Under the pieces are notes generated by a model. That model was not told where the DNA came from. It saw only the letters and a program-made list of their open reading frames with translations, and ran no database searches. Shown here one piece after another: positions 2,993 to 62,399 of a stretch of 64,000 bases of DNA (position 1 is its first letter; each line of letters starts with the position of its first letter). The stretch comes from Candidatus Woesearchaeota archaeon (lineage in GTDB: Archaea > Nanobdellota > Nanobdellia > UBA10117 > ARS21): assembly GCA_038128845.1 (NCBI GenBank), contig JAYPKL010000001.1, forward strand, positions 42,338 to 106,337. The letters run 5' to 3'. A program made the translations under genes and the position numbers.

Positions 2993-3550
2993 ATGAGAAA
3001 AGGACTTACTCCAGTTATAGCTATGATATTACTTCTTATGATGACCGTAGCTGCAGCGGGTGCAAGTTTTTATTGGTTACTTGGTCTTCAGGGCGAGCTT
3101 CAGGGCGGAACTCAGCAATTTCAAGAGCAAACATTTGAAAGAATGACTTCCGATGTTCAGTGGATGAGTGCAAGTTTTGAAAGAAATGGGACTGGCGACG
3201 ATAATGGAACATTGATGTTAACTATTATGAACACTGGAACAACCAAAATACCAATAAATAATGGTACAACAAGTCCGAAGGTTCAATGGACATTATATGA
3301 TTCTGAGCAAGATTTCATCTGTACTTCAGACTGGTCAAATACTGCAGACATAGTTATTTGTAATAGTGGATGTACATCCGAATTAGCACTAAAGGAAGTA
3401 AGAACAATCAATTTAACCGTTGATGGCAATAATTCATGTAGTTTAAATTCAACTACGACTTATCCGGATGACACATTAATTTATGTTGATATATCCTTTA
3501 GTGGTAAAACCACAACATCAGGAACTTTCAGGGTGGATACCGATGATTAA
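2993..3550 (+). CDS. archaeal type IV pilin-like protein (class III signal peptide)
   Basis: MRKG|LTPVIAMILLLMMTVAAAGASFYW N-terminus. Paralog of 41..601 and 3543..4052. C-terminal FSGKTTTSGTF motif. Multiple N-glycosylation sequons (NGT, NNGT, NLT, NNS, NST). Confidence 0.6.
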   Translation: MRKGLTPVIAMILLLMMTVAAAGASFYWLLGLQGELQGGTQQFQEQTFERMTSDVQWMSASFERNGTGDDNGTLMLTIMNTGTTKIPINNGTTSPKVQWTLYDSEQDFICTSDWSNTADIVICNSGCTSELALKEVRTINLTVDGNNSCSLNSTTTYPDDTLIYVDISFSGKTTTSGTFRVDTDD

Positions 3551-4052
3551 TAAAAAGGGACTTACTCCAATAATAGCAGTAATATTATTGATGATGATGA
3601 CGGTTGCTGCAGCAGGTGCAGGATTTTTCTGGTTTGTTAGAATTCAAGGAGAATTACAATCTGGAGGGGAAAATTATGCAACAGATTTAGGTGAAACTAT
3701 AAATTCCAATCTATATGTGGTTAATTCAGAATATGATTCCGGGGATTTAAAATTAATCGTAAGAAATACTGGAGGAGTAAACATACCTGTAAATAAAGGT
3801 CTTGATTCGCCTACTACTTCGATAATTCTGAATCAAGGAGATGGTCAAGTAATTTGTAATACTTTCTTAGGAAGTACAATTGCTGAGTGTACAAAAGGTT
3901 GTGGGAATGACATACTTGTTGGTGAAACTCAGGAAATTAACATAGATCTATCGGGAGATTGTTCTCTTACAAGTTATTCTGAAGATACTAGCATTTCATT
4001 TTCTATGGACTTTTCTGGTAAAGCTGGCACAGGCGGAGAATTCAGATTATAA
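3543..4052 (+). CDS. archaeal type IV pilin-like protein (class III signal peptide)
   Basis: Start chosen at MINKKG|LTPIIAVILLMMMTVAAAGAGFFW (internal Met of track ORF 3483..4052). Overlaps the upstream pilin stop by 8 bp (ATGATTAA). C-terminal FSGKAGTGGEF motif. Confidence 0.6.
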   Translation: MINKKGLTPIIAVILLMMMTVAAAGAGFFWFVRIQGELQSGGENYATDLGETINSNLYVVNSEYDSGDLKLIVRNTGGVNIPVNKGLDSPTTSIILNQGDGQVICNTFLGSTIAECTKGCGNDILVGETQEINIDLSGDCSLTSYSEDTSISFSMDFSGKAGTGGEFRL

Positions 4053-4085
4053 TAAGAGTTATATTAAAAAAATTAATATATTTTT

Positions 4086-5981
4086 ATGAAGGGTATATCT
4101 GAAATATTATCTATAACAATTGTAACATTAATTACTTTAACTGTATTTTCAGGTTTTTTTTATTGGTATTCGAATATTTCGGAAGATTCTAAAATTGGTT
4201 CAGAAGATTACACTAAAGAAATACAAAGTCAAATAATTACAACTTCAAATAAAATAATAGATGACTTGTATGATGTTTCAAAGGAAAAAAACATTAACAA
4301 TTTTGGAGAATTAACCTATACTATTGAAGCAGAAGATGGTCCAATTTCAATAGATTCAGAAGATTCAAGTTTTTCTCTATATGAAGGATATGGTTCGAAT
4401 ACTGAACTAATTTGTTCAGATTTTGGTTTAAATTGTAATTGTGAAAATGAAATACAAAAAATCTTTGGAGTTTTAGTTAATAATGATACTACTAAAGGAA
4501 TATACTTTTTAGAATATGATTCGATTAATGGCTTTTCTGAAAAACAATTGAAAATTTTTGGAAATTCAAATAATATTAGAAGATGCGATATAAGATATTT
4601 TGATCAATTTGTTGAGGGCGGAAATGATTGTAATGAGCCTAAAAACTTACTTGCAACAGGTTATTGTACTGATGATGATTCTTTTTATGAAAAAGCCACA
4701 TTCGTTTTAGATTCAAATTTAGATGGTAGTTACTATGATCTTTATGATACTGGAGATTTAGAAAAAATATTTGATGTTCAATTTGTAAATGATATTTTAG
4801 TTGATGATACATATCATTTATTCTCTGGTGCTTTTACAGATTATTTCAATGATTCAAATTACAATAAACAAGTTCTGTCTTTTAGCGATTTGATTTACGG
4901 AGATTATGAAAATCTAGGTTCATTTGGATTACTTCCAACTGAAACAGGAAATGCTGGATTGGCAGTAACTGCGATGGAACTTGTTTATCGAAATAATTAT
5001 CCTGCTTTACTCTTCGGAACCAGTCACGAAGAAGCAACTATAACAGGTGGAGCATATTTGGCAATTTCAGATGAACCTGAAAATAATGCAATATTCCAGG
5101 GAAATTTTAGGGCTTTTACTTCAGGATTTGATTGTCCATATGATATGGGTACTTTCTTAAGTGCAGGATTTGATATAGCTAAAATTGCCAATTGCGATAT
5201 TGATTTTAACTCAGTAGTAGAAATTGTTAAAACCGACTTGGTTGAAGATACTTATATTGATTCAGATCCTGTTATTTTAGGTTTAAATGAAGTTACAGAT
5301 GGAATCACAACTTTACCGATTGCAGTATTTTTTACAGATTATAATTACACTTCAACAAGAATTTATAACTTAGATTTAAGTACACTTGGTTTACCGCTTG
5401 ATGTAAAAATTACTCATATGTTTTATGATGATTCAAATGATAGAGTTTTTATTTTACTTGAGTCGACTATTCCTGGTTCTTTAACTACTCAAGTTATTGT
5501 GATTGATCATAATTTTGTTACATTAACTCCTCATTTAATCGAATTGAGTGGTGCAATAGACCCAAGTCTTGATGTGGAAAGTTTTACTGTAATAAATAAC
5601 ACTTTATTTTTTGGAGGGAATTATAATGATGGTATGGGAACCAATCAATCGGAAATATATACTGCCGTATTTGATGAAGAAACATTTGGATTATCTTCCG
5701 TTAATAGAGTGTATAGTAACAATACATTTTACTCTGTTTCAAATTTAGTTACTTTGAATTTATGTGAAGAAAAATCTCCATATTTAGAAACGGAATGTGA
5801 TATAAAACGAGGAGAATCTTGTGAAATAATTTTAAATATTGAAGATACTGATTGTGATATATCGGATTATCCTTCTGAAACTCAATTTTCTTCAACTTTA
5901 ACATTTGGAAAAAATAAAATCTATGAAATATTTAAGAAAGGGAGTGATCCGAGCGAGGAAACGGATTTAGTAGTTGTATGA
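4086..5981 (+). CDS. large secreted or pilus-associated protein with pilin-like N-terminal helix
   Basis: 631 aa. N-terminus MKG|ISEILSITIVTLITLTVFSGFFYW (hydrophobic helix after a KG leader). Asp/Cys-rich body. First gene of an overlapping operon (stop overlaps the next start). Confidence 0.5.
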   Translation: MKGISEILSITIVTLITLTVFSGFFYWYSNISEDSKIGSEDYTKEIQSQIITTSNKIIDDLYDVSKEKNINNFGELTYTIEAEDGPISIDSEDSSFSLYEGYGSNTELICSDFGLNCNCENEIQKIFGVLVNNDTTKGIYFLEYDSINGFSEKQLKIFGNSNNIRRCDIRYFDQFVEGGNDCNEPKNLLATGYCTDDDSFYEKATFVLDSNLDGSYYDLYDTGDLEKIFDVQFVNDILVDDTYHLFSGAFTDYFNDSNYNKQVLSFSDLIYGDYENLGSFGLLPTETGNAGLAVTAMELVYRNNYPALLFGTSHEEATITGGAYLAISDEPENNAIFQGNFRAFTSGFDCPYDMGTFLSAGFDIAKIANCDIDFNSVVEIVKTDLVEDTYIDSDPVILGLNEVTDGITTLPIAVFFTDYNYTSTRIYNLDLSTLGLPLDVKITHMFYDDSNDRVFILLESTIPGSLTTQVIVIDHNFVTLTPHLIELSGAIDPSLDVESFTVINNTLFFGGNYNDGMGTNQSEIYTAVFDEETFGLSSVNRVYSNNTFYSVSNLVTLNLCEEKSPYLETECDIKRGESCEIILNIEDTDCDISDYPSETQFSSTLTFGKNKIYEIFKKGSDPSEETDLVVV

Positions 5982-6601
5982 AAGGACAATCTCAAGTTGT
6001 TGGATTTACAGTAATAACACTAATAATGCTATCTATAACTTCAATTGTATTTCTTTGGGCACAGCCATTAATAGAAAGATCTGTTGATTTTAACAACATA
6101 GATAGAATGGAAAATCAAATGATTAAACTAGATAATGCAATTAAAGAAGTTGCATATGATAAATCTCAAAAAAGTATTAAATTTCAAATAGATTCTGGAA
6201 ATTTAATTTGGGAAAGAAATAATACAATTAACTATTATTCCGATCAGAATTTGCCTTTTTCTTCCGGTGAAAAGATATTAGTTAAGGGAACTTTAATAGG
6301 ATCGGATAATACAACTGCAACAAGTCCGTGTTATAATACTTCAATAAATGGTAGTGTTGGATTGGATGAATCTTCTTGTCTATATAAACAAGGTTCAAAT
6401 TTTCAATTATATTATCCGGTTTTAAACGACACATCGGGAAATTGTTTTGCAATAAGAGTTATACCTGGTAAAAATGCAGGAACTTCGGAAGGTACATATA
6501 CAATAGAATTAAAGTATAATCAAACAATAACAACAGCATATTCTATTGACAATGGATGTTCAACAATTTACAAACCAGAAATAATATTTAATATAAAATG
6601 A
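5978..6601 (+). CDS. minor pilin-like protein
   Basis: MKG|QSQVVGFTVITLIMLSITSIVFLW N-terminus. 207 aa. ATGA overlap on both sides. Confidence 0.5.
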   Translation: MKGQSQVVGFTVITLIMLSITSIVFLWAQPLIERSVDFNNIDRMENQMIKLDNAIKEVAYDKSQKSIKFQIDSGNLIWERNNTINYYSDQNLPFSSGEKILVKGTLIGSDNTTATSPCYNTSINGSVGLDESSCLYKQGSNFQLYYPVLNDTSGNCFAIRVIPGKNAGTSEGTYTIELKYNQTITTAYSIDNGCSTIYKPEIIFNIK

Positions 6602-9318
6602 AGGGGCAAATAAATATAATATACATTGGAATTTTAACTTTAATTAGTATCGCAGTTTTTGGAACTATTTTAATTTGGAACTTTTCTGTAAGCGAATCAA
6701 CTTCAAATGAATTTAACGAAAAACAAATGGAAATAATTGCAACTCAAATATCTGAAGACATAAACTATTTATCTACTTTTGATAAAAATTCAGTTTATAC
6801 GATTAAAAAAGATTTACCATCGACTATTGGTGAAGATGATTATTGTATTAGATTAAATCAAGATGAATTGGGAAACAAAAGAATATATGTTTCTAAAAAG
6901 GGGAATTCACTATCTTATAACTCTTTCAAAAAAACGGATTTTTACATAGATTTCAATAATAAAGAGTTAAATTTTGAAAATTCAATATCTTGTGGCGGTA
7001 AAACAAATATTGTAAAAACTCAAAACTCAATTGAATTAACAACGTCATTAACTTCGGCAGCAACTATTGTTGACGCTCCTCCGACTATATCTACAATAAT
7101 AGATACTTCGACTAACGAAGACACTTCAAAAGATATTACTTTTACTGTTTCGGATGAAAATTTAGCTTCTTTAGCACTTTCTGCAATTTCTGGAAACACT
7201 ACTTTAGTTAATCAAACTGCAAACGGAGGATTAATTATCCCATCTGCGTCAGGATCTTCAAGAACTCTTACAATTAATCCAAATAATAATCAAAATGGAA
7301 TAGTGGAAATAAATATAACTGCAACGGACGGATCTTCTCAAACAGATATCGAATCATTTAATTTGACAATAAATTCTGTTGATGATGGTCCAACAACGCC
7401 AACCGTAATTTATTCGCCTTCTTCAAATAGAAAAGTTGGTGATTCCTTAACTTGTGTCGCATCAAGTACTGATCCGGAAGGAGACTCAATAAGTTATTCA
7501 TATCAATTTAGAAATGGTTCTGAATCTGGAACCATAATTCAAGATTTTAGTTCAGATAATACCATTGACTCTATTTCTGCAACTTATGCTCATGAAGCAA
7601 TTTATTGTATTGCTTATGCAACTTCAAATTCAATTGATTCTTCTAGCAGTATTGCAACTATTACTATCTCCAATACTGATCCGAGTTCTGCAAGTCTATC
7701 TTCCAATACAATTAATGAAGGATCTAGTCCGGGTACTGCTGTGGGTGCAATAACTTGTACTGATGTGGATAATGATGTTTGCAGTTATACAGAGTATGCA
7801 CCAGGTCATAACGGATCTTCCATATTTGAAATAAGCGGTACATCTATTGTTCTATCTAGTGGTCAAAATTTAGATTTTGAAACGGATAATAGTTATAATT
7901 ATTCTGTGCTAGTAGATGACGGTTTTGGGGGGGATATATATCAAGAATTTAACATATCTGTTACTGATATAAATGAGGTACCGACGGATATAACTCCTAA
8001 CTCATTAACTATAAATGAAAATTCTCCAATTAATAGTGAAGTTGGTACTTTAACAGTAACAGATTCGGATTCTGGAGATTCTCATACTTTTACTGAATTA
8101 ACGGGTGGAACGGGGGAATCTTATTTTAATATTAGTTCTTCTGGTGTTGTTGAAGTTGAAGAAAATTCAATACTCAATTATGAATCAGGAACAACAAGCT
8201 ATACTTACGAAGTTAGAGTTACTGATTCAGGTTCTTTAACTTATAATGAAATAATTACAATTAATATTTTGGATGTTAATGAAGCTCCAGTAACTTTCGA
8301 AGATTCATATTCAATGGATCAAGATACAACATTGAATATTATTGAATCGGAAGGTGTTCTTGCTAATGATACGGACCCAGATTCCGATACTTTAACTGCA
8401 ACTTTAGTTAATGATGTATCCACGGGATCGTTGAGTTTGGCTTCAGATGGTTCATTTACTTATACTCCGGTTATTGGATTTACAGGAACGGTTGAATTTA
8501 ATTATTCGGCAGGAGATGGAGGAATAAGTTCATTGCCCGAAAATGTAACCATTACTGTAAATGCTGTATCAAATAATGCGCCGGTTGCTTCAGCAGATTC
8601 AGCCGCAGTAAATGAAGACACAACTCTTTCCGATACATTGACTGCTGCAGATATAGATGGAGACTCATTGACTTTTTCCATAGTTTCACAAGCATCAAAC
8701 GGAGTAGCTACAATTACAAACTCGACAACTGGGGCTTTCAACTATGTTCCGGGCGCAAATTATAATGGAGCGGATTCATTTACTTTCAAAGCAAATGATG
8801 GAACAGATAATTCAAATACAGCTACATTTTCAATAACAATTAATTCGGTAAATGATGCTCCAATTTGGTCTCCAGTAATTCCTGATAAAACAGTGGGAGT
8901 TTCGGAATCCACTAACATAGATTTATTTACATATCATTTGGATGTTGACGGTAGTGATTTAGCAACAAGTTTTTCAATAAATTCAATATCTCCGCCATCG
9001 CCAGATTTTACTTGTAGTATAACTTCAGATCAATATCTTGATTGTATTTGGAATTCTGCTCCTCCCGCTCTGCCTCAACTATTTGATGTTACTGTTAATG
9101 CAGATGATGGAAATGGTGGAAGTGCTACGGATACGGTTGCTATAACAGTAGATCCTTCTGCAGGTGGAAGCTGTCAACCTATTCCTGATCCGAGTCTTTG
9201 TGATCCTACTTATGATCCTGAAGAGTATCCTGAAGCAAGTCATGATGGAAGAAGTTGTTATAGAAGTCAAGATGATTGTGATAACAGTGTATCTCCAATT
9301 GGAGCATATTTAGGATAA
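6598..9318 (+). CDS. pilin-headed adhesin with tandem cadherin-like repeats
   Basis: 906 aa. MKG|QINIIYIGILTLISIAVFGTILIW N-terminus. Body has ~100-aa repeats ending in D-x-N-(D/E)-x-P linkers (SVDDGP, TDINEVP, LDVNEAP, SVNDAP) typical of cadherin or VCBS-like domains. Cys-rich C-terminus. Confidence 0.6.
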   Translation: MKGQINIIYIGILTLISIAVFGTILIWNFSVSESTSNEFNEKQMEIIATQISEDINYLSTFDKNSVYTIKKDLPSTIGEDDYCIRLNQDELGNKRIYVSKKGNSLSYNSFKKTDFYIDFNNKELNFENSISCGGKTNIVKTQNSIELTTSLTSAATIVDAPPTISTIIDTSTNEDTSKDITFTVSDENLASLALSAISGNTTLVNQTANGGLIIPSASGSSRTLTINPNNNQNGIVEINITATDGSSQTDIESFNLTINSVDDGPTTPTVIYSPSSNRKVGDSLTCVASSTDPEGDSISYSYQFRNGSESGTIIQDFSSDNTIDSISATYAHEAIYCIAYATSNSIDSSSSIATITISNTDPSSASLSSNTINEGSSPGTAVGAITCTDVDNDVCSYTEYAPGHNGSSIFEISGTSIVLSSGQNLDFETDNSYNYSVLVDDGFGGDIYQEFNISVTDINEVPTDITPNSLTINENSPINSEVGTLTVTDSDSGDSHTFTELTGGTGESYFNISSSGVVEVEENSILNYESGTTSYTYEVRVTDSGSLTYNEIITINILDVNEAPVTFEDSYSMDQDTTLNIIESEGVLANDTDPDSDTLTATLVNDVSTGSLSLASDGSFTYTPVIGFTGTVEFNYSAGDGGISSLPENVTITVNAVSNNAPVASADSAAVNEDTTLSDTLTAADIDGDSLTFSIVSQASNGVATITNSTTGAFNYVPGANYNGADSFTFKANDGTDNSNTATFSITINSVNDAPIWSPVIPDKTVGVSESTNIDLFTYHLDVDGSDLATSFSINSISPPSPDFTCSITSDQYLDCIWNSAPPALPQLFDVTVNADDGNGGSATDTVAITVDPSAGGSCQPIPDPSLCDPTYDPEEYPEASHDGRSCYRSQDDCDNSVSPIGAYLG

Positions 9319-9355
9319 CTAAAAAAACATATATAATAAAATAACAATAATAAAT

Positions 9356-11035
9356 ATGTTAAATAAGAGGGCAATCCGACTTTTAAATAAATATAAGAAT
9401 AATAATTCAAATATCAATAAAAAAGAGATTTTACAGAATAATTCTAACATAAAAATTGATGAAGAAGTTGAAACAAAACTAAAAGTAAAATTACCGCAAG
9501 ATCACATTTCACATAAGTCTGCAGAAGAAAATATATTGGAAGAATTAAGAAATGTTAATGAAAATTATCCTTTGATTACGGCAAATATAAATAATCAAAC
9601 TATAATTCTTGCAAGTGCCCATATTTATTTTGATGATGAAAATCAAACTCTGAAGTATAATGTAATTGAGCCAAAATTAAATGAATATATGCATGAGATT
9701 ATAAACAGAACAATTGAAGAATTACATGAGAATTTAGATTTAGAATTTGAAAATCTAAAAAATAAAGATGAAATTCAAAAATATTTACATAAAAAAATTG
9801 AAGATATATGGAATAAAATGAATTTACAACCATCGCCAGAAAATTCAATGATCTTGAAGTACTATACTGTGAGACAAGTTTCTGGATTGGAAATAATTGA
9901 TGCCATAATGCAAGATCCGAATATTGAAGATATATCTTGTGATGGGATAGGAATGCCTATTTTCATATTTCATAGAAATCCAGTTTATGGTGAAATGTCA
10001 ACCAATATTTCATTTAATTCTAAACAAGACTTAGATTCTTTTTGTATGAGACTTGCACAGAAGGCAAAAAGATCAATATCGGTTGCAAATCCGTTAATGG
10101 ATGGATCTTTAGAAGATGGATCAAGAGTACAAATTACTTATGGTACCGATATTTCCAGAAGAGGAAGTAATTTTACAATAAGAAAATTTTTCAAAAATCC
10201 CCTTAGTCCAATTGACTTAATGAAATTTGAAACAGTTGATGCAATAACTTTAGCTTACTTATGGTATGCAATTGAAATGGAAAAATCAATTCTAGTTGCA
10301 GGTTCAACTGCATCAGGTAAAACTACTTTCTTAAATTCAATTTCATTATTTATAAGGCCAAATGATAAAATTGTTTCAATTGAAGATACTTCTGAACTTC
10401 AAATACCTCGCGCTAATTGGATTCCTCAAGTAACTCGAACCGGTTTTGGTCCTGAAAAATATGGTGAAATCGATATGCACAATCTTCTAAAATCTTCTTT
10501 AAGACAAAGACCCGATTATTTAATTGTTGGAGAAGTTCGAGGTGTGGAAGCTGAAGTATTATTTCAGGCCATGGCTACAGGTCATCCGGGCTTATCTACA
10601 ATCCATGCAGACAATGTAGCGGCAGTAATAGATCGTTTGAGTACGCCTCCAATTCAATTGCCATTATCTGTACTTCAAAATTTGGATATTATTGTTTTCT
10701 TAGAAAAAATGAAGAAGGAAGGTAAATTTTTTAGAAAACTTAAGAAAGTAGTAGAAGTTGAAGGTTTTGATGCAAAGAATAAAGAACTAAAAATTAATGA
10801 TGCGATTGTATATGATCCAAAAACAAATCAATTAACTAAAAATGAAAGTTTTATTTTATCCACAATAGCTGAGTCAAATGCAAAAAATCATGAACATGTT
10901 CTGGATGAAATAATGAGAAGATCTAATATTTTGAAATGGATGTATGAAAAGGAGATTACTAGATTTGAGGAAGTTAACAAAATAATTACTACTTATTACG
11001 CCAATCCTGAATCAGTATTAAATATGATAAAATGA
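9356..11035 (+). CDS. type IV pilus/archaellum assembly ATPase (FlaI/PilB/TadA, VirB11-like family)
   Basis: Walker A VAGSTASGKTTFLNS, Walker B/Asp box DYLIVGEVRG, downstream His box TGHPG. 559 aa with an N-terminal extension typical of archaeal FlaI-like ATPases. Confidence 0.85.
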   Translation: MLNKRAIRLLNKYKNNNSNINKKEILQNNSNIKIDEEVETKLKVKLPQDHISHKSAEENILEELRNVNENYPLITANINNQTIILASAHIYFDDENQTLKYNVIEPKLNEYMHEIINRTIEELHENLDLEFENLKNKDEIQKYLHKKIEDIWNKMNLQPSPENSMILKYYTVRQVSGLEIIDAIMQDPNIEDISCDGIGMPIFIFHRNPVYGEMSTNISFNSKQDLDSFCMRLAQKAKRSISVANPLMDGSLEDGSRVQITYGTDISRRGSNFTIRKFFKNPLSPIDLMKFETVDAITLAYLWYAIEMEKSILVAGSTASGKTTFLNSISLFIRPNDKIVSIEDTSELQIPRANWIPQVTRTGFGPEKYGEIDMHNLLKSSLRQRPDYLIVGEVRGVEAEVLFQAMATGHPGLSTIHADNVAAVIDRLSTPPIQLPLSVLQNLDIIVFLEKMKKEGKFFRKLKKVVEVEGFDAKNKELKINDAIVYDPKTNQLTKNESFILSTIAESNAKNHEHVLDEIMRRSNILKWMYEKEITRFEEVNKIITTYYANPESVLNMIK

Positions 11036-11901
11036 ATTTATCAAATCGAGCAACTAGTTTATTTGGAAAATATGTAAATTCTGAAAATTTTTTATTTAAA
11101 AATTTGAAACAAAAATTAAAACAAGCTAAAATAAAATTACCCGTTGAAACATATGGTTCCATTATATTTTTAGTGCTATTTTCGTCATTTATAGTTTCTC
11201 TAATTTTTTTATTATTTCTTAGTATTTTAACTGTGGGTATTAATTTTTCAGCAATACTAATGAATTTTATTGTTGCAATTTTTGTAGGACTAATTTGCGG
11301 AACTTTTACGTATTTTTATCCTAATTTTATTATTAGTGAAAAGAAAGGAAAAATTGAAAATTCACTTGCATTTGTTTCAATTTATATGTCGACATTAACA
11401 AAGTCTGGTTTCCAACCTCAAAATATATTCAAAATGTTGAGCAAATTTGATGATTATCCTGCTGCAGCAAATGAAGCACGGAAAATTAATCATGAGGTAA
11501 ATAAATTGGGAATGGATTTACGTACATCAATCTCTAAAGCAATAGAAAGGTCTCCTTCTCCAGATTGGACGGAATTTTTATCGGGTATAAAAAATAGTAT
11601 TGAATCAGGCGGAAACTTAGATAAATATCTTGAAGAAAAAGCAAAAGGATATACGGGAGATTACAAACGAAAATTAGAATCTTTTGGAAAAACTTTAACT
11701 TTATTGATGAACTTATACATAACAGTAATAATTGTTGGTACAATTTTTTTCATAATAGTTTCTTCACTAATGGGTGCAGTCGGTGGTATCTCTGTGGGAA
11801 CTATAAAATTATTTCATTATATTACGGTATTTGGAGGTTTACCGCTTATAACAGCAATTCTAATAACTTTAGTTAAAAGTGCTTCGCCATGGTCAGAATA
11901 G
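11032..11901 (+). CDS. pilus platform membrane protein, N-terminal half (T2SS-F/TadB/FlaJ-like)
   Basis: 289 aa polytopic membrane protein immediately downstream of the ATPase and overlapping it (ATGA). Assigned by position and topology; it forms a split pair with the next ORF. Confidence 0.5.
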   Translation: MNLSNRATSLFGKYVNSENFLFKNLKQKLKQAKIKLPVETYGSIIFLVLFSSFIVSLIFLLFLSILTVGINFSAILMNFIVAIFVGLICGTFTYFYPNFIISEKKGKIENSLAFVSIYMSTLTKSGFQPQNIFKMLSKFDDYPAAANEARKINHEVNKLGMDLRTSISKAIERSPSPDWTEFLSGIKNSIESGGNLDKYLEEKAKGYTGDYKRKLESFGKTLTLLMNLYITVIIVGTIFFIIVSSLMGAVGGISVGTIKLFHYITVFGGLPLITAILITLVKSASPWSE

Positions 11902-13028
11902 AAGAACTAAAGAAACAAAAAAAATTATATTATACTCTACTGGCTCTGCCATTGCCTCTAATTTTGGGAGCTTTGGCTTTTGTATTTGGTGCATCTTCAA
12001 CATTTGCAATAGCTTTGATATCAATTGGGTTAATACTTGTTGTTCTTCCTTCAATGATTTTATCTTTTTTAGAATTTAGAGATATTAAATCTTCGGAAGA
12101 TAATTTTCCAAATTTTCTTGACGATTTGTCTCAATCTTCTTCTGCAGGGATGAATCTACCTCAGGCAATTTCGGTTGCAAGTAAAACTAGCTATGGTAAA
12201 TTGACTTCCCACATCAAACAATTGAATATATGGTTAACTTGGAACATGGCATTCCCGGCCGCATGGAAAAAATTTACAAAAAGATTGGATGCAAGTCCGC
12301 TTATAAGAAGAGTTAATGGTATAATTATTGAAGCGTTTAATGGAGGCGGAGACGTGAATAAAACTCTTGGATCTTTAGCTGCCGATGTTAATATAATAAA
12401 AGATATGGAGGCAGAAAGAAGATCAATAATGCAACAGCAAATAGTAATTATGTATATTATTTTCTTTGTATTTATTGGAGTAATCATCGCATTATACAAA
12501 ATTCTTTCTCCAATACTTTATGTTCAACAGATTGGTTCGTTTTCTGGAATTGGAATTCAAGGTTCTGGAACATTATCTATCGAATACTTTAGAAATTTAT
12601 TTTTTGTAATGACTTTAGTTGAGGCAGTTTGTGCAGGTCTAATTGCAGGTCAAATTGCGGAAGAAAAATTAGTTGCAGGAGTAAAACATATTGTAATAAT
12701 GACTGCAAGTACAATTTTAATTTTCTTTATTTTTGTATTTCCTACAACACTTTCCGTAGACATATCTGTTTATCCGAGTCAAACATTTACGGAAGGAAAA
12801 GTTACTTTTACAGGAAAAGCTTTTTCAGAGGGAGCTCCGGTAACGGGAGCAGATGTAACTATAATTGATTATGATAATACAATAATAAATTTATTTACGG
12901 ATAATGCAGGAGAATTTAGATATGTTTGGAACGCTCCTGAAGTACCGGGAAATTATACTGTCGGTTTAACAATTGAACATGAGGGGGAAGTTAAGAGCTT
13001 TAGACGAAGTATCTTTGTAGAAAATTGA
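11889..13028 (+). CDS. pilus platform membrane protein, C-terminal half (TadC/FlaJ-like) with C-terminal beta-sandwich extension
   Basis: 379 aa with multiple TM helices, then a soluble C-terminal ~90 aa (GKVTFTGKAF...VTGADVTIIDYDNTIINLFTDNAGEFRY...PGNYTV) resembling a carboxypeptidase-regulatory or Ig-like fold. Confidence 0.5.
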   Translation: MVRIEELKKQKKLYYTLLALPLPLILGALAFVFGASSTFAIALISIGLILVVLPSMILSFLEFRDIKSSEDNFPNFLDDLSQSSSAGMNLPQAISVASKTSYGKLTSHIKQLNIWLTWNMAFPAAWKKFTKRLDASPLIRRVNGIIIEAFNGGGDVNKTLGSLAADVNIIKDMEAERRSIMQQQIVIMYIIFFVFIGVIIALYKILSPILYVQQIGSFSGIGIQGSGTLSIEYFRNLFFVMTLVEAVCAGLIAGQIAEEKLVAGVKHIVIMTASTILIFFIFVFPTTLSVDISVYPSQTFTEGKVTFTGKAFSEGAPVTGADVTIIDYDNTIINLFTDNAGEFRYVWNAPEVPGNYTVGLTIEHEGEVKSFRRSIFVEN

Positions 13029-14080
13029 AAAAAGGGTATGCAGTAGGTGAATTTATTTTAGTATCATTTTTTTTTCTAATTTTAGTTGTTTTAATTATTA
13101 ACAGATTTACAGATTATACTTTGATTGAATTAAATAAATTTGAAGATTATCAAGAATGTGAAAATTCAATAAAAAATTTTGAGAAACTATTTGATGACGA
13201 ATTAGTAATGACTGCAAATTCAAATTTAAGTTCAATTATATCCAATTATACTTCTGAGGGAAATAACATCTCTATATTAAATTCCAATATTACTCAATTG
13301 GGATTTTCATCTGGGAAAAATAAACTAAATTATACCAGTTTAAATTTAATTTTTAATAATTTAAGAATATTTGATTGGAATGAATATGAAAATTCATATG
13401 ATAGTTTTTCAATAAATGTTGAACCGTATGCAGTTAATGTTGAATCTATTTATTCCGATGAGTCGAATATAACCGGATTCTATGGTGAAACTAGAGCGAA
13501 TATTTGGTTAAATGATTCGGTTACAAATTCGAACACAGTTCATTATACAATAGGATTAAGTGCATATGAAACTTCGGGCTACGATTCTATTTTTGAATTT
13601 GTTATTTTAATTCCAAATGCCACAGTATTGGGTTCATTAGATCCCGGATTGTCTAATTCTGGTTCTAATTCTCAATATCTGAAAATTAGTGGTTCAATTG
13701 AACCAAATACAAGCAGGGAAACAGTATATTTTTCATATTCTTCAGATACAACAAATTATATTGGATGGGGAGACGATTATGCAAACTATGGTTTAAATTA
13801 TGAAGAGATACAAAATATTACTAAAAAAAATAATCTAATTATTTTTGATAAAATAAAATTTTATGATCAAGAAACTAAAAAGGAATTAGACATAGTTTTT
13901 GGAAACAATACAAATTTAAATTTAAATTGGGGTCCGGAAAATGCAGAAGGTTGTAAATATAGTAGAATATATTTAATTGAAGATGATTCAAAAAGAATTA
14001 ATTACACAATAAACGGATTCGTTAAAGAAATAAATATTAATCCGAAAATTTATTCAAAGATTGAGGTTGTATCGAGATGA
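13025..14080 (+). CDS. minor pilin-like protein
   Basis: MKKG|YAVGEFILVSFFFLILVVLIINRF: KG leader, hydrophobic helix and Glu at about +6 as in type IV prepilins. N-x-S/T rich. Overlapping starts. Confidence 0.45.
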   Translation: MKKGYAVGEFILVSFFFLILVVLIINRFTDYTLIELNKFEDYQECENSIKNFEKLFDDELVMTANSNLSSIISNYTSEGNNISILNSNITQLGFSSGKNKLNYTSLNLIFNNLRIFDWNEYENSYDSFSINVEPYAVNVESIYSDESNITGFYGETRANIWLNDSVTNSNTVHYTIGLSAYETSGYDSIFEFVILIPNATVLGSLDPGLSNSGSNSQYLKISGSIEPNTSRETVYFSYSSDTTNYIGWGDDYANYGLNYEEIQNITKKNNLIIFDKIKFYDQETKKELDIVFGNNTNLNLNWGPENAEGCKYSRIYLIEDDSKRINYTINGFVKEININPKIYSKIEVVSR

Positions 14081-15117: not shown

Positions 15118-17226
15118 ATGTTAGTTTCAAGTATAAAAGATAAACTTCCTGAAAAGTTTTTCAAAACAATTGAATTTGAAGAATTTAGACCTTCTCAAAG
15201 CAAAGCAATAGATAGGGGACTTTTGGAAAGTAAAAATATGTTAATATGTTCTCCGACTGCTTCGGGTAAAACTTTTGTTGCAGAACTAGCCGGAATTAAA
15301 AGTATAATTGAAACTGGTGGTAAAATGATTTATATTGTTCCGCTTAAATCTCTTGCAACTGAAAAAGCAGAAGAATTCAAAAAGTATGAAGAAATTGGAA
15401 TTAAAACGGCAGTTTCAATAGGAGATCCAGAATCAAAAGATCCGTGGTTGGCAAATGCAGATATAATCGTATGTACTAGTGAAAAATTCGATTCATTATT
15501 AAGACATAATATTTCTTGGTTAAATAAAATTAAAGTAGCAGTATTTGATGAAATTCATTTAATAAACGATTCAAATAGGGGACCAACATTAGAAGTTATA
15601 ATAACTTTGTTGAAAACTTTGTTAAATAAAATTCAAATTATTGGACTTTCAGCAACAATTGGAAATCCAAAAGAACTTTCAGATTGGTTAGAGGGCGAAT
15701 TAATTCAAGATTCTTGGCGTCCAGTAAAACTTATTCAAGGAATTTATGCAGATGAAGAAATAAACTTTGAAAAAAAAGTAATACCTGTTGAAAAAATAAA
15801 AAATGATGCAACTTTATCTTTGGCATTAGATACAATAAATTTGGGTAAACAAGCACTAATATTCTGTCCAACAAAAAAATCTGCTCAATCAACTGCCAAA
15901 AAAATTTCAAATTTAATAAAATCTGAACTAAATAAAGACTTATCTTCTAAAATTAAATCTGCCGCAGGAGTTCCCACAATGCAATGTGAAGAACTTGGTG
16001 ATTGCGTAAGCAAAGGTATTGCATTTCATCATTCAGGTCTTTTATCAAAACAAAAAAAAATTGTTGAAGAAAATTTCAAAAATAATATAATAAAAATAAT
16101 TTGCTGTACGCCAACTCTTGCGATGGGAGTTAATCTTCCTGCATTTAGAGTTATTATGAAGAGTCTAAAAAGATATGGAAAAAGAGGAATGGATTGGATA
16201 CCCGTATTAGAATATCATCAAATGACGGGTAGAGCAGGAAGACCAAAATTTAATGATTCTCACGGAGAGGCAATTTCAATAGCAAAAGATAATTCTGAAT
16301 TTGATTACATAAATGAATCATATTTAAGAGGAAGTGCAGAAGATTTAACTTCAAAATTGGGAGTTGAACCGATACTAAGATCGGTTATATTGAGCTTAGT
16401 TGCATCAGGATTTGTTATAAAAGAAGAAAAATTAATTGAATTTTTTAGTAATACATTTTATGGTTCTCAATTTGGTAATGACTTTGGTTTTAAAATTAAA
16501 ATATTATCAGCATTATCTGATCTTGAAAAATTTAAATTTCTTAAAAGAACGGAAACATCTATAATTCCAACAGTGGTGGGAAAAAGAGTTTCTGAATTAT
16601 ATATTTATCCTGATGCTGCTTTTGAAATAATTAATAATTTTGAAAAGATGTCTAATATTTTTGAAGATTTACCTTTCTTACATTCAATAAGTTCAAATTT
16701 AGAAATGAGTCCGTGGTTATCTTTACAAAAAAAAGATTATGAATATATCGATATCTCTTTATCTGAAATTGAAGACAAATTAATAAATCCAATTCCATAT
16801 CAATGGGATTATGAATATGATGAATTTTTAAGAAAAACAAAAACTTGTTTTGTATTGAATGAATGGATAAATGAGAGTAATGAAAAAGAAATATTTGAAA
16901 ACTATAATGTTGCACCTGGATTGATGAGAGATATTTCTAATAAATGTGAATGGTTACTTTATGGTGCTGCTGAATTGGCCAAGGTGACTGGAAATTTAGA
17001 TAAAGTTAGCGATATAACTAAACTAAAAATAAGAATTAAAAATGGAATAAAATCTGAATTACTGCCGTTAATTAGATTGAAAGGTATTGGAAGAGTGAGG
17101 GCAAGAAGATTATTTGGATCGGGATTAAAATCTTTACAAAATTTAAAATCTGCAAATATAGAATTGCTTTCTGATATTCTCGGTGAAAAAACTGCAATAT
17201 CTGTTAAGAAACAATTGAATTTATAA
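15118..17226 (+). CDS. hel308: Hel308/Hjm-type Ski2-like DNA helicase
   Basis: Motif I SPTASGKT, motif II DEIH, motif IV HHSGL, and a C-terminal winged-helix/HhH region. 702 aa. Confidence 0.8.
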   Translation: MLVSSIKDKLPEKFFKTIEFEEFRPSQSKAIDRGLLESKNMLICSPTASGKTFVAELAGIKSIIETGGKMIYIVPLKSLATEKAEEFKKYEEIGIKTAVSIGDPESKDPWLANADIIVCTSEKFDSLLRHNISWLNKIKVAVFDEIHLINDSNRGPTLEVIITLLKTLLNKIQIIGLSATIGNPKELSDWLEGELIQDSWRPVKLIQGIYADEEINFEKKVIPVEKIKNDATLSLALDTINLGKQALIFCPTKKSAQSTAKKISNLIKSELNKDLSSKIKSAAGVPTMQCEELGDCVSKGIAFHHSGLLSKQKKIVEENFKNNIIKIICCTPTLAMGVNLPAFRVIMKSLKRYGKRGMDWIPVLEYHQMTGRAGRPKFNDSHGEAISIAKDNSEFDYINESYLRGSAEDLTSKLGVEPILRSVILSLVASGFVIKEEKLIEFFSNTFYGSQFGNDFGFKIKILSALSDLEKFKFLKRTETSIIPTVVGKRVSELYIYPDAAFEIINNFEKMSNIFEDLPFLHSISSNLEMSPWLSLQKKDYEYIDISLSEIEDKLINPIPYQWDYEYDEFLRKTKTCFVLNEWINESNEKEIFENYNVAPGLMRDISNKCEWLLYGAAELAKVTGNLDKVSDITKLKIRIKNGIKSELLPLIRLKGIGRVRARRLFGSGLKSLQNLKSANIELLSDILGEKTAISVKKQLNL

Positions 17227-17958
17227 ATTTCTTGAAAAAATTAAAAAAGCAGTATGACCGATTTGTTGGGATTTCGGTCGAGATATTTTTCCATCGAAAG
17301 TCCAAGGTCTTTCGGATATTTCGATGATTCTTTCGATCAATATATTATTTTTGTCTGCAAATGTTTTAAATTCTTGAATTTGAGAAACTTGCGGAAGATA
17401 GCAAATAATGTGTCCGCCAATCTTAACATTATTTTTTAATGTTTTAATTTTCCAAGGTTCTGCTAAATCTAAAATAATTGCATCAAAATTCTTTTCAGAA
17501 ATATTTTCATAAACGTCACCCAATTTACTTTTTATATTTTTAAGATTTAAAGATTTAAAATTTGTATTTGAAATATTATAATTTTGTTCAGATTTATCAT
17601 AAGTAACAACTTTACCTTTTGGTCCAACAACTTTAGAAAGAAAAGATGCCATCCATCCTGACCCGGTGCCTGCGTCAATTACTTTTGAACCAGAACCGAT
17701 ACCGGAATAAGAAATTATTGTACCTGCGTCTTTTGGTAAAATTATTTGAGGTCCTCTTTTTGATTTTTTAAGTAAATCAAAAAAATTTGGTTCAATTACT
17801 GTAAAGAGAGTTCCTCTAGATGATTCAATTTTATCTCCGAATTTTTTAATTTTTGATAAATCAACATTGCCTTCTTTAATGTGAAATAACTCTTTCTTAT
17901 AATTTGTTAAATATCTTGAATTTTCTGAAATTAATAATATTTTAGTATTTTTTTTCAT
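17221..17958 (-). CDS. trmI: tRNA (adenine-N1)-methyltransferase TrmI (Gcd14 family)
   Basis: IILPKDAGTIIS...VIDAGTGSGWMASFLSKVVGPKGKVVTYDKSEQ matches the TrmI pattern (IIYPKD..., GTGSG, VGPxGKVxTYE) on a SAM-dependent methyltransferase fold. Confidence 0.75.
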   Translation of the reverse strand: MKKNTKILLISENSRYLTNYKKELFHIKEGNVDLSKIKKFGDKIESSRGTLFTVIEPNFFDLLKKSKRGPQIILPKDAGTIISYSGIGSGSKVIDAGTGSGWMASFLSKVVGPKGKVVTYDKSEQNYNISNTNFKSLNLKNIKSKLGDVYENISEKNFDAIILDLAEPWKIKTLKNNVKIGGHIICYLPQVSQIQEFKTFADKNNILIERIIEISERPWTFDGKISRPKSQQIGHTAFLIFSRNL

Positions 17959-61197: not shown

Positions 61198-61279
61198 GCC
61201 AACGTCGCATAATCTGGTATTGCGCTCGCCTCGAAAGCGAGTTCCTTTGGAATTGCAGGTTCAAATCCTGCCGTTGGCG
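61198..61279 (+). tRNA. tRNA-Ser (CGA), class II with long variable arm
   Basis: Acceptor GCCAACG/CGTTGGC, anticodon stem CTCGC/GCGAG with loop CTCGAAA (anticodon CGA), 13-nt variable arm TTCCTTTGGAATT, T-arm GCAGG-TTCAAAT-CCTGC, discriminator G. Confidence 0.75.
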
Positions 61280-61653
61280 TCATTATTTAAATAAACATAA
61301 TGGGTTCCAGGTAAATAAGTTATATTTTCAAATTCACCGGATAAATCTTCTTCAATTTTTCTAGATAAACCAACATATCTTACTTTACCTAACTTACTTA
61401 TACAAGCTTCTTTCAAAGGTACATGACTTTGATACAAAGACAATTCTGAGCTATTTTCTATTTTTTTTAATAAAGTTCTTTGACTAATGGTTCTGCTCGG
61501 AGAATTATTTCTTAATTGATTTTGTAAATCTCTTAAAGATAATGGAGCAAATTCAATTTTATCTAAAATCATTTCTTCCAAAGTTTTAGTATTTCTTCGA
61601 TTTAACAATTTTTGTCTCTGTTGGCTGTTTTTCCAAGAATCATTAGACGACAT
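61261..61653 (-). CDS. hypothetical protein; its 3' end overlaps tRNA-Ser by ~19 nt on the opposite strand
   Basis: 130-aa ORF with no motif. The overlap with an RNA gene lowers confidence in the exact 3' end. Confidence 0.3.
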   Translation of the reverse strand: MSSNDSWKNSQQRQKLLNRRNTKTLEEMILDKIEFAPLSLRDLQNQLRNNSPSRTISQRTLLKKIENSSELSLYQSHVPLKEACISKLGKVRYVGLSRKIEEDLSGEFENITYLPGTHYVYLNNDANGRI

Positions 61654-62213: not shown

Positions 62214-62295
62214 GTAAAATTTGCTATTTTTTCATATTTTTAAATGTTTCTTTAAAGGTTACTTTTTTAAATAATTTCTTTAAAGTATATTTAAT

Positions 62296-62399
62296 GGGCG
62301 TATAGCTTAGTCTGGTAGAGCGCTGGTCTTATAAGGCCACTTCCGAAATGGAAGATCTGAGTATACCAGAGGTCCCAGGTTCAAATCCTGGTTCGCCCA
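62296..62399 (+). tRNA. intron-containing tRNA with anticodon UAU (tRNA-Ile, AUA-reading); ~30-nt intron at canonical 37/38 position (about 62334..62363)
   Basis: Acceptor GGGCGTA/TTCGCCC (one U-U mismatch), D-arm GCTT...GAGC, anticodon stem CTGGT/ACCAG with loop CTTATA^(intron)T, T-arm CCAGG-TTCAAAT-CCTGG, discriminator A. The intron contains the hairpin CTTCC-GAAAT-GGAAG. Confidence 0.6.

Follow-up and report, generated by a model that had tools for sequence, protein, structure and literature searches.

An intron-containing tRNA-Ile(UAU) gene with a strict bulge-helix-bulge splice site in a marine Woesearchaeota-like archaeon

In a survey of 167 archaeal genomes, a tRNA-Ile with a genomically encoded UAU anticodon was found only in Nanoarchaeum equitans and in Korarchaeum cryptofilum, the gene of the latter being interrupted by an intron (PMC6000648). 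The tRNAscan-SE 2.0 paper describes this tRNA, under the name of ‘Ile3(UAU)’, as obviating Ile2(CAU) in the same two organisms (PMC8450103). A tRNA-Ile(UAU) was also reported by Fujishima et al. in 2011 for ARMAN-2, -4 and -5, all of which belong to DPANN and are without tRNA-Ile(CAU) and TiaS homologues (PMC3239211). The ARMAN-2 precursor carries a 25-nt intron at position 37/38 within a strict hBHBh' motif (where BHB stands for bulge-helix-bulge), and is cut in vitro by the EndA of that organism (PMC3239211). In eukaryotes, the intron of tRNA-Ile(UAU) is needed for the formation of Psi34 and Psi36 by Pus1, and blocks the formation of ncm5U34 (PMC11408192, PMC4090602). A literature search returned no explicit report of a tRNA-Ile(UAU) for a Woesearchaeota-like lineage, nor, with the supplements of the Undinarchaeota paper included, anything relevant on TiaS or agmatidine in DPANN or Woesearchaeota.

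The gene considered here lies in a stretch of 64,000 nucleotides, hereafter the window, and is a further instance of the arrangement already described, that is, the intron-containing tRNA-Ile(UAU) of DPANN archaea. It is very probable that it is a functional gene of a marine Woesearchaeota-like (DPANN) organism, the transcript of which is spliced at a BHB motif and reads AUA instead of the tRNA-Ile2(CAU)/TiaS system. The features of the locus on which this reading is built are collected in Table 1.

Table 1. Features of the tRNA-Ile(UAU) locus, with positions counted from the first nucleotide of the window.
Feature	Start	End	Strand	Basis
tRNA-Glu(UUC), divergent neighbour of tRNA-Ile(UAU)	62138	62213	-	ARAGORN and Rfam
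Putative archaeal TATA box TTTTTTAAATAA, centred some 27 nt upstream of where the tRNA begins	62263	62274	+	Inference from sequence and relatives
Complete pre-tRNA-Ile(UAU), G1 to discriminator A73, no encoded CCA	62296	62399	+	Rfam RF00005, ARAGORN -i, covariation in 22 distinct relatives
Exon 1: acceptor 5' strand, D-arm, anticodon stem 5' strand, C32-A37	62296	62333	+	Sequence and Rfam alignment
Central 4-bp BHB helix, 5' strand C32 U33 U34 A35	62328	62331	+	Pairs with 62358-62361
Anticodon T34-A35-T36 (UAU), complement of codon AUA	62330	62332	+	Rfam, ARAGORN, hand check of splice registers
5' three-base bulge U36, A37 and i1, holding the 5' splice site	62332	62334	+	Hand fold
30-nt intron at the canonical 37/38 position	62334	62363	+	Rfam, ARAGORN -i, BHB register table
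Intron hairpin CUUCC-GAAAU-GGAAG, extending the short h' helix	62340	62354	+	Constrained and unconstrained folds
Central BHB helix, 3' strand UGAG, intron bases 25-28	62358	62361	+	BHB register comparison
3' three-base bulge i29-i30 and U38, holding the 3' splice site	62362	62364	+	Hand fold and register comparison
Exon 2: U38, anticodon stem 3' strand, variable loop, T-arm, acceptor 3' strand, A73	62364	62399	+	Rfam alignment, relatives, covariation

The Rfam tRNA model RF00005 matches the gene with 61.1 bits (gathering score 29, E 8.7e-11) over model positions 1-71 of 71, and its alignment contains one 31-nt insertion, placed right behind the C-U-U-A-U-A of the anticodon loop. ARAGORN with introns enabled (-i) returns tRNA-Ile(tat), i(41,30), with a 30-nt intron; in its default mode, which reports just Cys-GCA, Ser-CGA and Glu-UUC over the window, it makes no call here. 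In other words, tRNA finders without intron detection miss the gene, such that the genome may seem to be without an AUA decoder, or the gene may be mis-annotated. The GC content of the gene is 51%, against 28.8% for the window, and no ORF of at least 40 aa overlaps it. As regards identity, A73, A35-U36, A37, U12-A23 and C4-G69 are all present, and the Ile call of ARAGORN derives from the anticodon; the predicted assignment to isoleucine rests on the anticodon, A73, these general features and that call.

Within the precursor, the central helix of the splice site is composed of the pairs C32-G, U33-A, U34.G and A35-U. It is flanked on the outer side by helix h, which is the 5-bp anticodon stem, and on the inner side by helix h', in which G2-C24 and G3.U23 are followed by the 5-bp hairpin. 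From published work, the first two bases of the anticodon belong to the central BHB helix (PMC4090602), and this is the geometry seen here: U34 and A35 fall within the 4-bp helix, a 3-nt bulge lies on each of the two strands, and h and h' are both present. The intron thus forms a strict hBHBh' motif at 37/38. The predicted spliced product is a 74-nt tRNA with the loop CUUAUAU; the junction given by ARAGORN lies one base 3' of that from the BHB rule, giving CUUAUAA rather than CUUAUAU and leaving the anticodon unchanged.

The earlier note on this DNA had allowed that another placement of the intron could change the mature anticodon. On paper this is so, in that keeping two or three of the exon-1 loop bases gives CUAGUAU or CUUGUAU, with AGU or UGU (Thr) as the anticodon. 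Both of these cuts, however, fall outside the two three-base bulges, whereas a hand check in which four, five, six or seven loop bases are kept gives UAU each time, the BHB geometry selecting 37/38 from among these registers. Moreover, the same register is kept in 37 of 37 distinct sequences despite introns of 17-54 nt, with all four central pairs formed in 25 of them and three of the four in 12, and with seven variants of the 3' strand (UGAG, UAAG, UAGG, UGGG, GAAG, UUGG and UUAG). The discriminator, in addition, is A73. A mature anticodon other than UAU is, accordingly, scarcely credible. The cloverleaf, the UAU anticodon and the intron of about 30 nt at 37/38 with its own hairpin, which the earlier note had proposed from a fold by hand, all hold: the first in the full-model Rfam match and in the covariation of 22 distinct sequences described below, the second in the agreement of Rfam with ARAGORN and across the registers from four to seven bases, and the third in the ARAGORN length, the BHB register and the hairpin itself.

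The structure is taken from constrained folds and hand analysis. The unconstrained minimum free energy (MFE) fold of the precursor (z-score -2.5), which contains neither the cloverleaf nor the BHB and pairs U28-C32 with the start of the intron, is counted as evidence in neither direction. That fold draws on intron bases 2-6, GGCCA (the elements involved lie within 62324-62339), which are able to form a hairpin with U28-C32 in the anticodon arm, incompatible with the anticodon stem and the BHB. Intron bases 2-6 read GACCR in 23 of 36 other distinct sequences, and are better conserved than the pairing partner within h'. Box C/D elements of the kind known from the haloarchaeal tRNA-Trp intron were also sought in the intron; there is no C box, the sole CUGA lies within the BHB helix, and the intron is too short, for which reason a guide-RNA reading was rejected.

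The conservation of the gene bears directly on whether it could be a decaying pseudo-tRNA without a role in translation. The interrupted anticodon loop, the silence of ARAGORN in its default mode and a single non-canonical acceptor pair, U6.U67, could all be read in that sense. Against this, the Rfam score of the gene is level with those of the other three of the four tRNAs that a whole-window scan returns (58-61 bits). The exons are 100% identical in four related contigs (L015, L041, L051 and L062) whose overall identity to the window is 77-87%, and more widely they are invariant, exon 1 included, in relatives of 77-95% overall identity, while the flanks diverge. The intron of close relatives has two differences from that of the window; in L015 these are G to A at i3, opposite U23, which turns a G.U into an A-U pair, and A to C at i13 in the hairpin loop. 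Both are neutral in structure and leave the BHB motif intact.

Covariation points in the same direction. When 22 distinct spliced sequences were aligned and the cloverleaf pairs counted, 99.8% of the pair cells were paired, as compared with 29-46% when the partners were slid against each other. Compensatory changes on both sides were present in 9 of 21 pairs, with a covariation score that was reached by 0 of 500 shuffles; the four helices of the cloverleaf are, in other words, kept by compensatory changes among homologues. The one unpaired cell in the alignment is the U6.U67 of the window gene itself. This U.U mismatch (62301, 62393) is common to L015, L041, L051, L058, L062 and L065, and is replaced by a standard pair in 21 other distinct sequences. 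Because the comparative set was retrieved by a pattern that holds the anticodon or its flanks, the invariance of the anticodon arm is partly by construction. Finally, the 806 AUA codons within the 64 kb of the window require a decoder. A pseudo-tRNA, which the earlier note had named as a possible outcome, is therefore highly improbable, exon conservation and covariation having disposed of it. What remains is a confirmed and conserved archaeal tRNA gene, which is an ordinary feature of its group and of an arrangement already known elsewhere.

Conservation extends upstream of the gene. GC-richer relatives have boxes of the TTTAAA or TTTATATA type about 25-38 nt upstream, which, together with the putative box in Table 1, would fit an archaeal TATA promoter. 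The 82-bp spacer between tRNA-Glu and tRNA-Ile (62214-62295) is almost invariant in contigs that are otherwise 77-87% identical, which suggests two conserved promoters back to back. The divergent tRNA-Glu(UUC) is present in 17 of 54 related loci, and on the other side the ArgRS gene starts 41 nt downstream of tRNA-Ile(UAU). A little further upstream, the 3' end of tRNA-Ser(CGA) (61198-61279, plus strand) overlaps by 19 nt (61261-61279) with the stop-proximal end of a minus-strand ORF of 130 aa (61261-61653), which is called as a gene on the public contig L080 too.

The proteins of the window are in keeping with an archaeal origin, and include, for replication and housekeeping, the large and small subunits of PolD, a family B polymerase, Hel308, Orc1/Cdc6, topoisomerase I, a thermosome, LonB, CDC48, SerRS and a tRNA methyltransferase of the TrmI/GCD14 type. 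The last of these (m1A58; 17221-17958, minus strand) is the only recognised tRNA-modification enzyme of the window. A cluster resembling those for type IV pili or archaella spans 2993-14080, with two archaeal flagellin/pilin-domain proteins, a UpsB-like pilin, a 906-aa tandem-95-repeat protein, a T2SSE ATPase and two T2SSF membrane proteins. The LonB has no amino-acid change on a contig of GCA_038108575.1, the DNA of which is 99% identical to the window. The nearest named species-level genome is ‘Candidatus Woesearchaeota archaeon RS366’ (L015 above), with 78% identity over 6.5 kb and the same gene order of tRNA-Ser(CGA), tRNA-Glu(UUC) and tRNA-Ile(UAU).

How widely the gene is spread was addressed with an exact search for the 20-mer GGTAGAGCGCTGGTCTTATA, which runs from the D-arm to the anticodon, in one genome for each prokaryotic species. 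Matches to GGTAGAGCGCTGGTCTTATA were found in 17 species-level genomes, in all of which an intron lies immediately 3' of CTTATA. Thirteen are labelled as Woese-, Pace-, Parv- or Nanoarchaeota/Nanoarchaeia, one of them as ‘archaeon’, and the other four (L004, L009, L017 and L019) are co-assembly bins titled ‘uncultured Methanosarcinales archaeon’ in which the gene is of the DPANN type. The tRNA genes of L004, L017 and L019 are closely like those of metagenome-assembled genomes (MAGs) or metagenome contigs labelled Nanoarchaeota/Nanoarchaeia, and from such sequences the Methanosarcinales labels may be placeholders or errors.

Since the 20-mer fixes the anticodon, a metagenome scan was also made with position 34 left free. 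It gave 59 matches, with T at this position in 37, C in 18, G in 2 and A in 2. Among the T34 matches, 36 of 37 are of the archaeal type (with a G[GA]NCC... acceptor); one of these (L027) is broken off by the end of its contig, and the 35 that are complete have both A73 and the intron. The 37th (L061) looks bacterial, with 66% GC, an encoded CCA and no intron. The C34 matches have acceptor and T arms unrelated to those of the archaeal-type tRNA, and no CAU version of the archaeal-type tRNA body is present among the 59 matches. At five loci, L037, L038 and L071 (34-35% GC, contigs of 78-305 kb) together with L053 and L077, the tRNAs with a CAU anticodon contain in the anticodon loop an intron of about 30-40 nt, which pairs with the anticodon; the 19-mer of D-arm and anticodon stem is present in them as well, but with unrelated acceptor and T arms.

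Taken together, these comparisons suggest that TiaS-independent decoding of AUA is a broad trait of DPANN and not a peculiarity confined to two or three genomes. The earlier note had given the UAU tRNA for only a few lineages such as Nanoarchaeum and Korarchaeum, and had thought it a useful marker in placing the organism. Both of these occurrences are indeed published, but the list was incomplete, as ARMAN-2, -4 and -5 (PMC3239211) and the Woese-, Pace-, Parv- and Nanoarchaeota-labelled genomes found here belong on it. Likewise, the gene does mark the organism as of the DPANN type, and puts it firmly there, but it is nothing exceptional within that group, given its spread across labelled DPANN genomes.

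A second intron is found inside the T-loop of 12 of the 37 distinct genes, behind GGTTCAAA at about position 59/60 and with a length from 15 to about 89 nt. Its carriers are L004, L006, L007, L010, L012, L016, L017, L018, L029, L032, L039 and L069; the window gene is without it. For genes with two introns ARAGORN gives no call at all.

The demand for such a tRNA in the organism is considerable. Counted over 46 ORFs and the partial ArgRS gene (18,806 codons), AUA makes up 4.29% of all codons and 40.3% of those for isoleucine, and is the seventh most frequent codon, with AUG at 1.81%; its abundance, expected earlier from the low GC content, is therefore real. Because AUA is so frequent, a dedicated decoder is indispensable, and the gene explains how one of the commonest codons of this AT-rich archaeon is read. 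Neither the four tRNAs of the window nor 361 kb of related loci include a tRNA with a CAU anticodon, and there is no match to the TiaS family in the 40 window ORFs scanned. Sequence of about 2 kb beyond the window completes the ArgRS gene; it contains no tiaS and no additional tRNA. A tRNA that is real but supplementary, with tiaS and tRNA-Ile2(CAU) also in the genome and agmatidine decoding persisting, is in this regard improbable: beyond the want of a CAU tRNA in the window and the related loci, and of a CAU version of the archaeal-type tRNA body in the position-34-free scan, all published archaeal cases of the UAU tRNA go with the loss of TiaS and tRNA-Ile(CAU) (PMC3239211, PMC8450103). From this precedent, the tRNA of the window would replace the TiaS/agmatidine system.

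The pathway that we envisage begins with transcription, probably from the gene's own TATA-type promoter. In the precursor, C32-A35 would pair with the UGAG of the intron to make the 4-bp centre of the BHB, after which the archaeal splicing endonuclease would cut within both three-base bulges and an RtcB-type ligase would join the exons. The resulting tRNA of 74 nt, with the loop C-U-U-A-U-A-U, would later receive its CCA, be charged by IleRS and read AUA, standing in, as such a tRNA does in N. equitans, K. cryptofilum and ARMAN, for the usual archaeal tRNA-Ile2(CAU)/TiaS agmatidine system. Neither EndA nor RtcB is found among the scanned ORFs of the window; the processing enzymes, charging with isoleucine, the absence of TiaS and the avoidance of AUG by U34 are what we infer for the organism as a whole. 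With respect to charging, haloarchaeal tRNA-Ile mutants with U34 are reported to acquire cnm5U34 and to be poor substrates of IleRS (PMC3895270). Because the haloarchaeal enzyme charges such mutants poorly, the IleRS of UAU-type archaea, this lineage included, would by analogy have had to adapt.

What keeps a UAU anticodon from AUG is a matter on which the ever-present intron raises the question of a role in anticodon modification. The 37/38 intron, at 17-54 nt, is found in every one of 53 full-length archaeal copies, which amount to 37 distinct sequences with that of the window counted in, as against an anticodon-loop intron in 19 of the 62 other tRNAs within the same 361 kb of loci. Such a proportion would be expected if the intron were needed, and it could also reflect common ancestry alone. 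In DPANN the genomes are reduced, and many modification enzymes have been lost. It is thus a serious, if not a favoured, possibility that U34 is unmodified, and that co-evolved ribosomes and IleRS discriminate between AUA and AUG, as in Mycoplasma mobile, where a tRNA-Ile2(UAU) with unmodified U34 reads AUA specifically (PMC3575796; PMC3895270). The universality of the intron, to the extent that it exceeds what ancestry explains, speaks against this reading and for intron-dependent modification as its alternative. In the latter case, which we put forward as speculative and rather unlikely in its full form, the 37/38 intron would be retained in every DPANN tRNA-Ile(UAU) for a role before splicing, in which U34 and A35, held in the helix, direct or permit modification of the wobble base and so keep UAU off AUG. 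Candidate intron-dependent changes could be of a Psi34-like kind, or a shielding from the xm5U-type modification that favours wobble to G. If true, archaea would have a counterpart, and perhaps an evolutionary forerunner, of the intron-dependent Psi-A-Psi system of eukaryotes.

Set beside the known systems, the tRNA of the window has something in common with each. With the tRNA-Ile2(UAU) of M. mobile it shares an encoded UAU anticodon for AUA in an AT-rich genome, that of M. mobile being reduced and having lost the C34-modifying enzyme (PMC3575796). The M. mobile tRNA, however, is bacterial and without an intron, and in its case unmodified U34 and the co-adaptation of IleRS have been demonstrated (PMC3575796). 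The eukaryotic tRNA-Ile(UAU) resembles it in the anticodon, in the 37/38 intron, which is obligatory in eukaryotes, and in the pairing of anticodon with intron in the precursor. It differs in that the splice site is recognised by a molecular ruler rather than a BHB, and in that only U34 and A35 of the window precursor lie in the helix, with U36 bulged. The ‘Ile3’ of N. equitans and K. cryptofilum is likewise a UAU tRNA encoded in the genome, which there replaces tRNA-Ile2(CAU), and the Korarchaeum gene has an intron too; these are other lineages, compared here by description, while the genome behind the window gene is Woesearchaeota-like, marine and low in GC. As to ARMAN-2 (Ca. Micrarchaeum), its intron is of 25 nt and of other sequence, as against 30 nt in the window, and its cleavage by the epsilon2 EndA has been shown by experiment, whereas cleavage of the window intron is a prediction from sequence. 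In both, nevertheless, the precursor is a pre-tRNA-Ile(UAU) interrupted at 37/38 by an intron within a strict hBHBh' motif, and in ARMAN-2 this goes with a genome that is without TiaS and tRNA-Ile(CAU).
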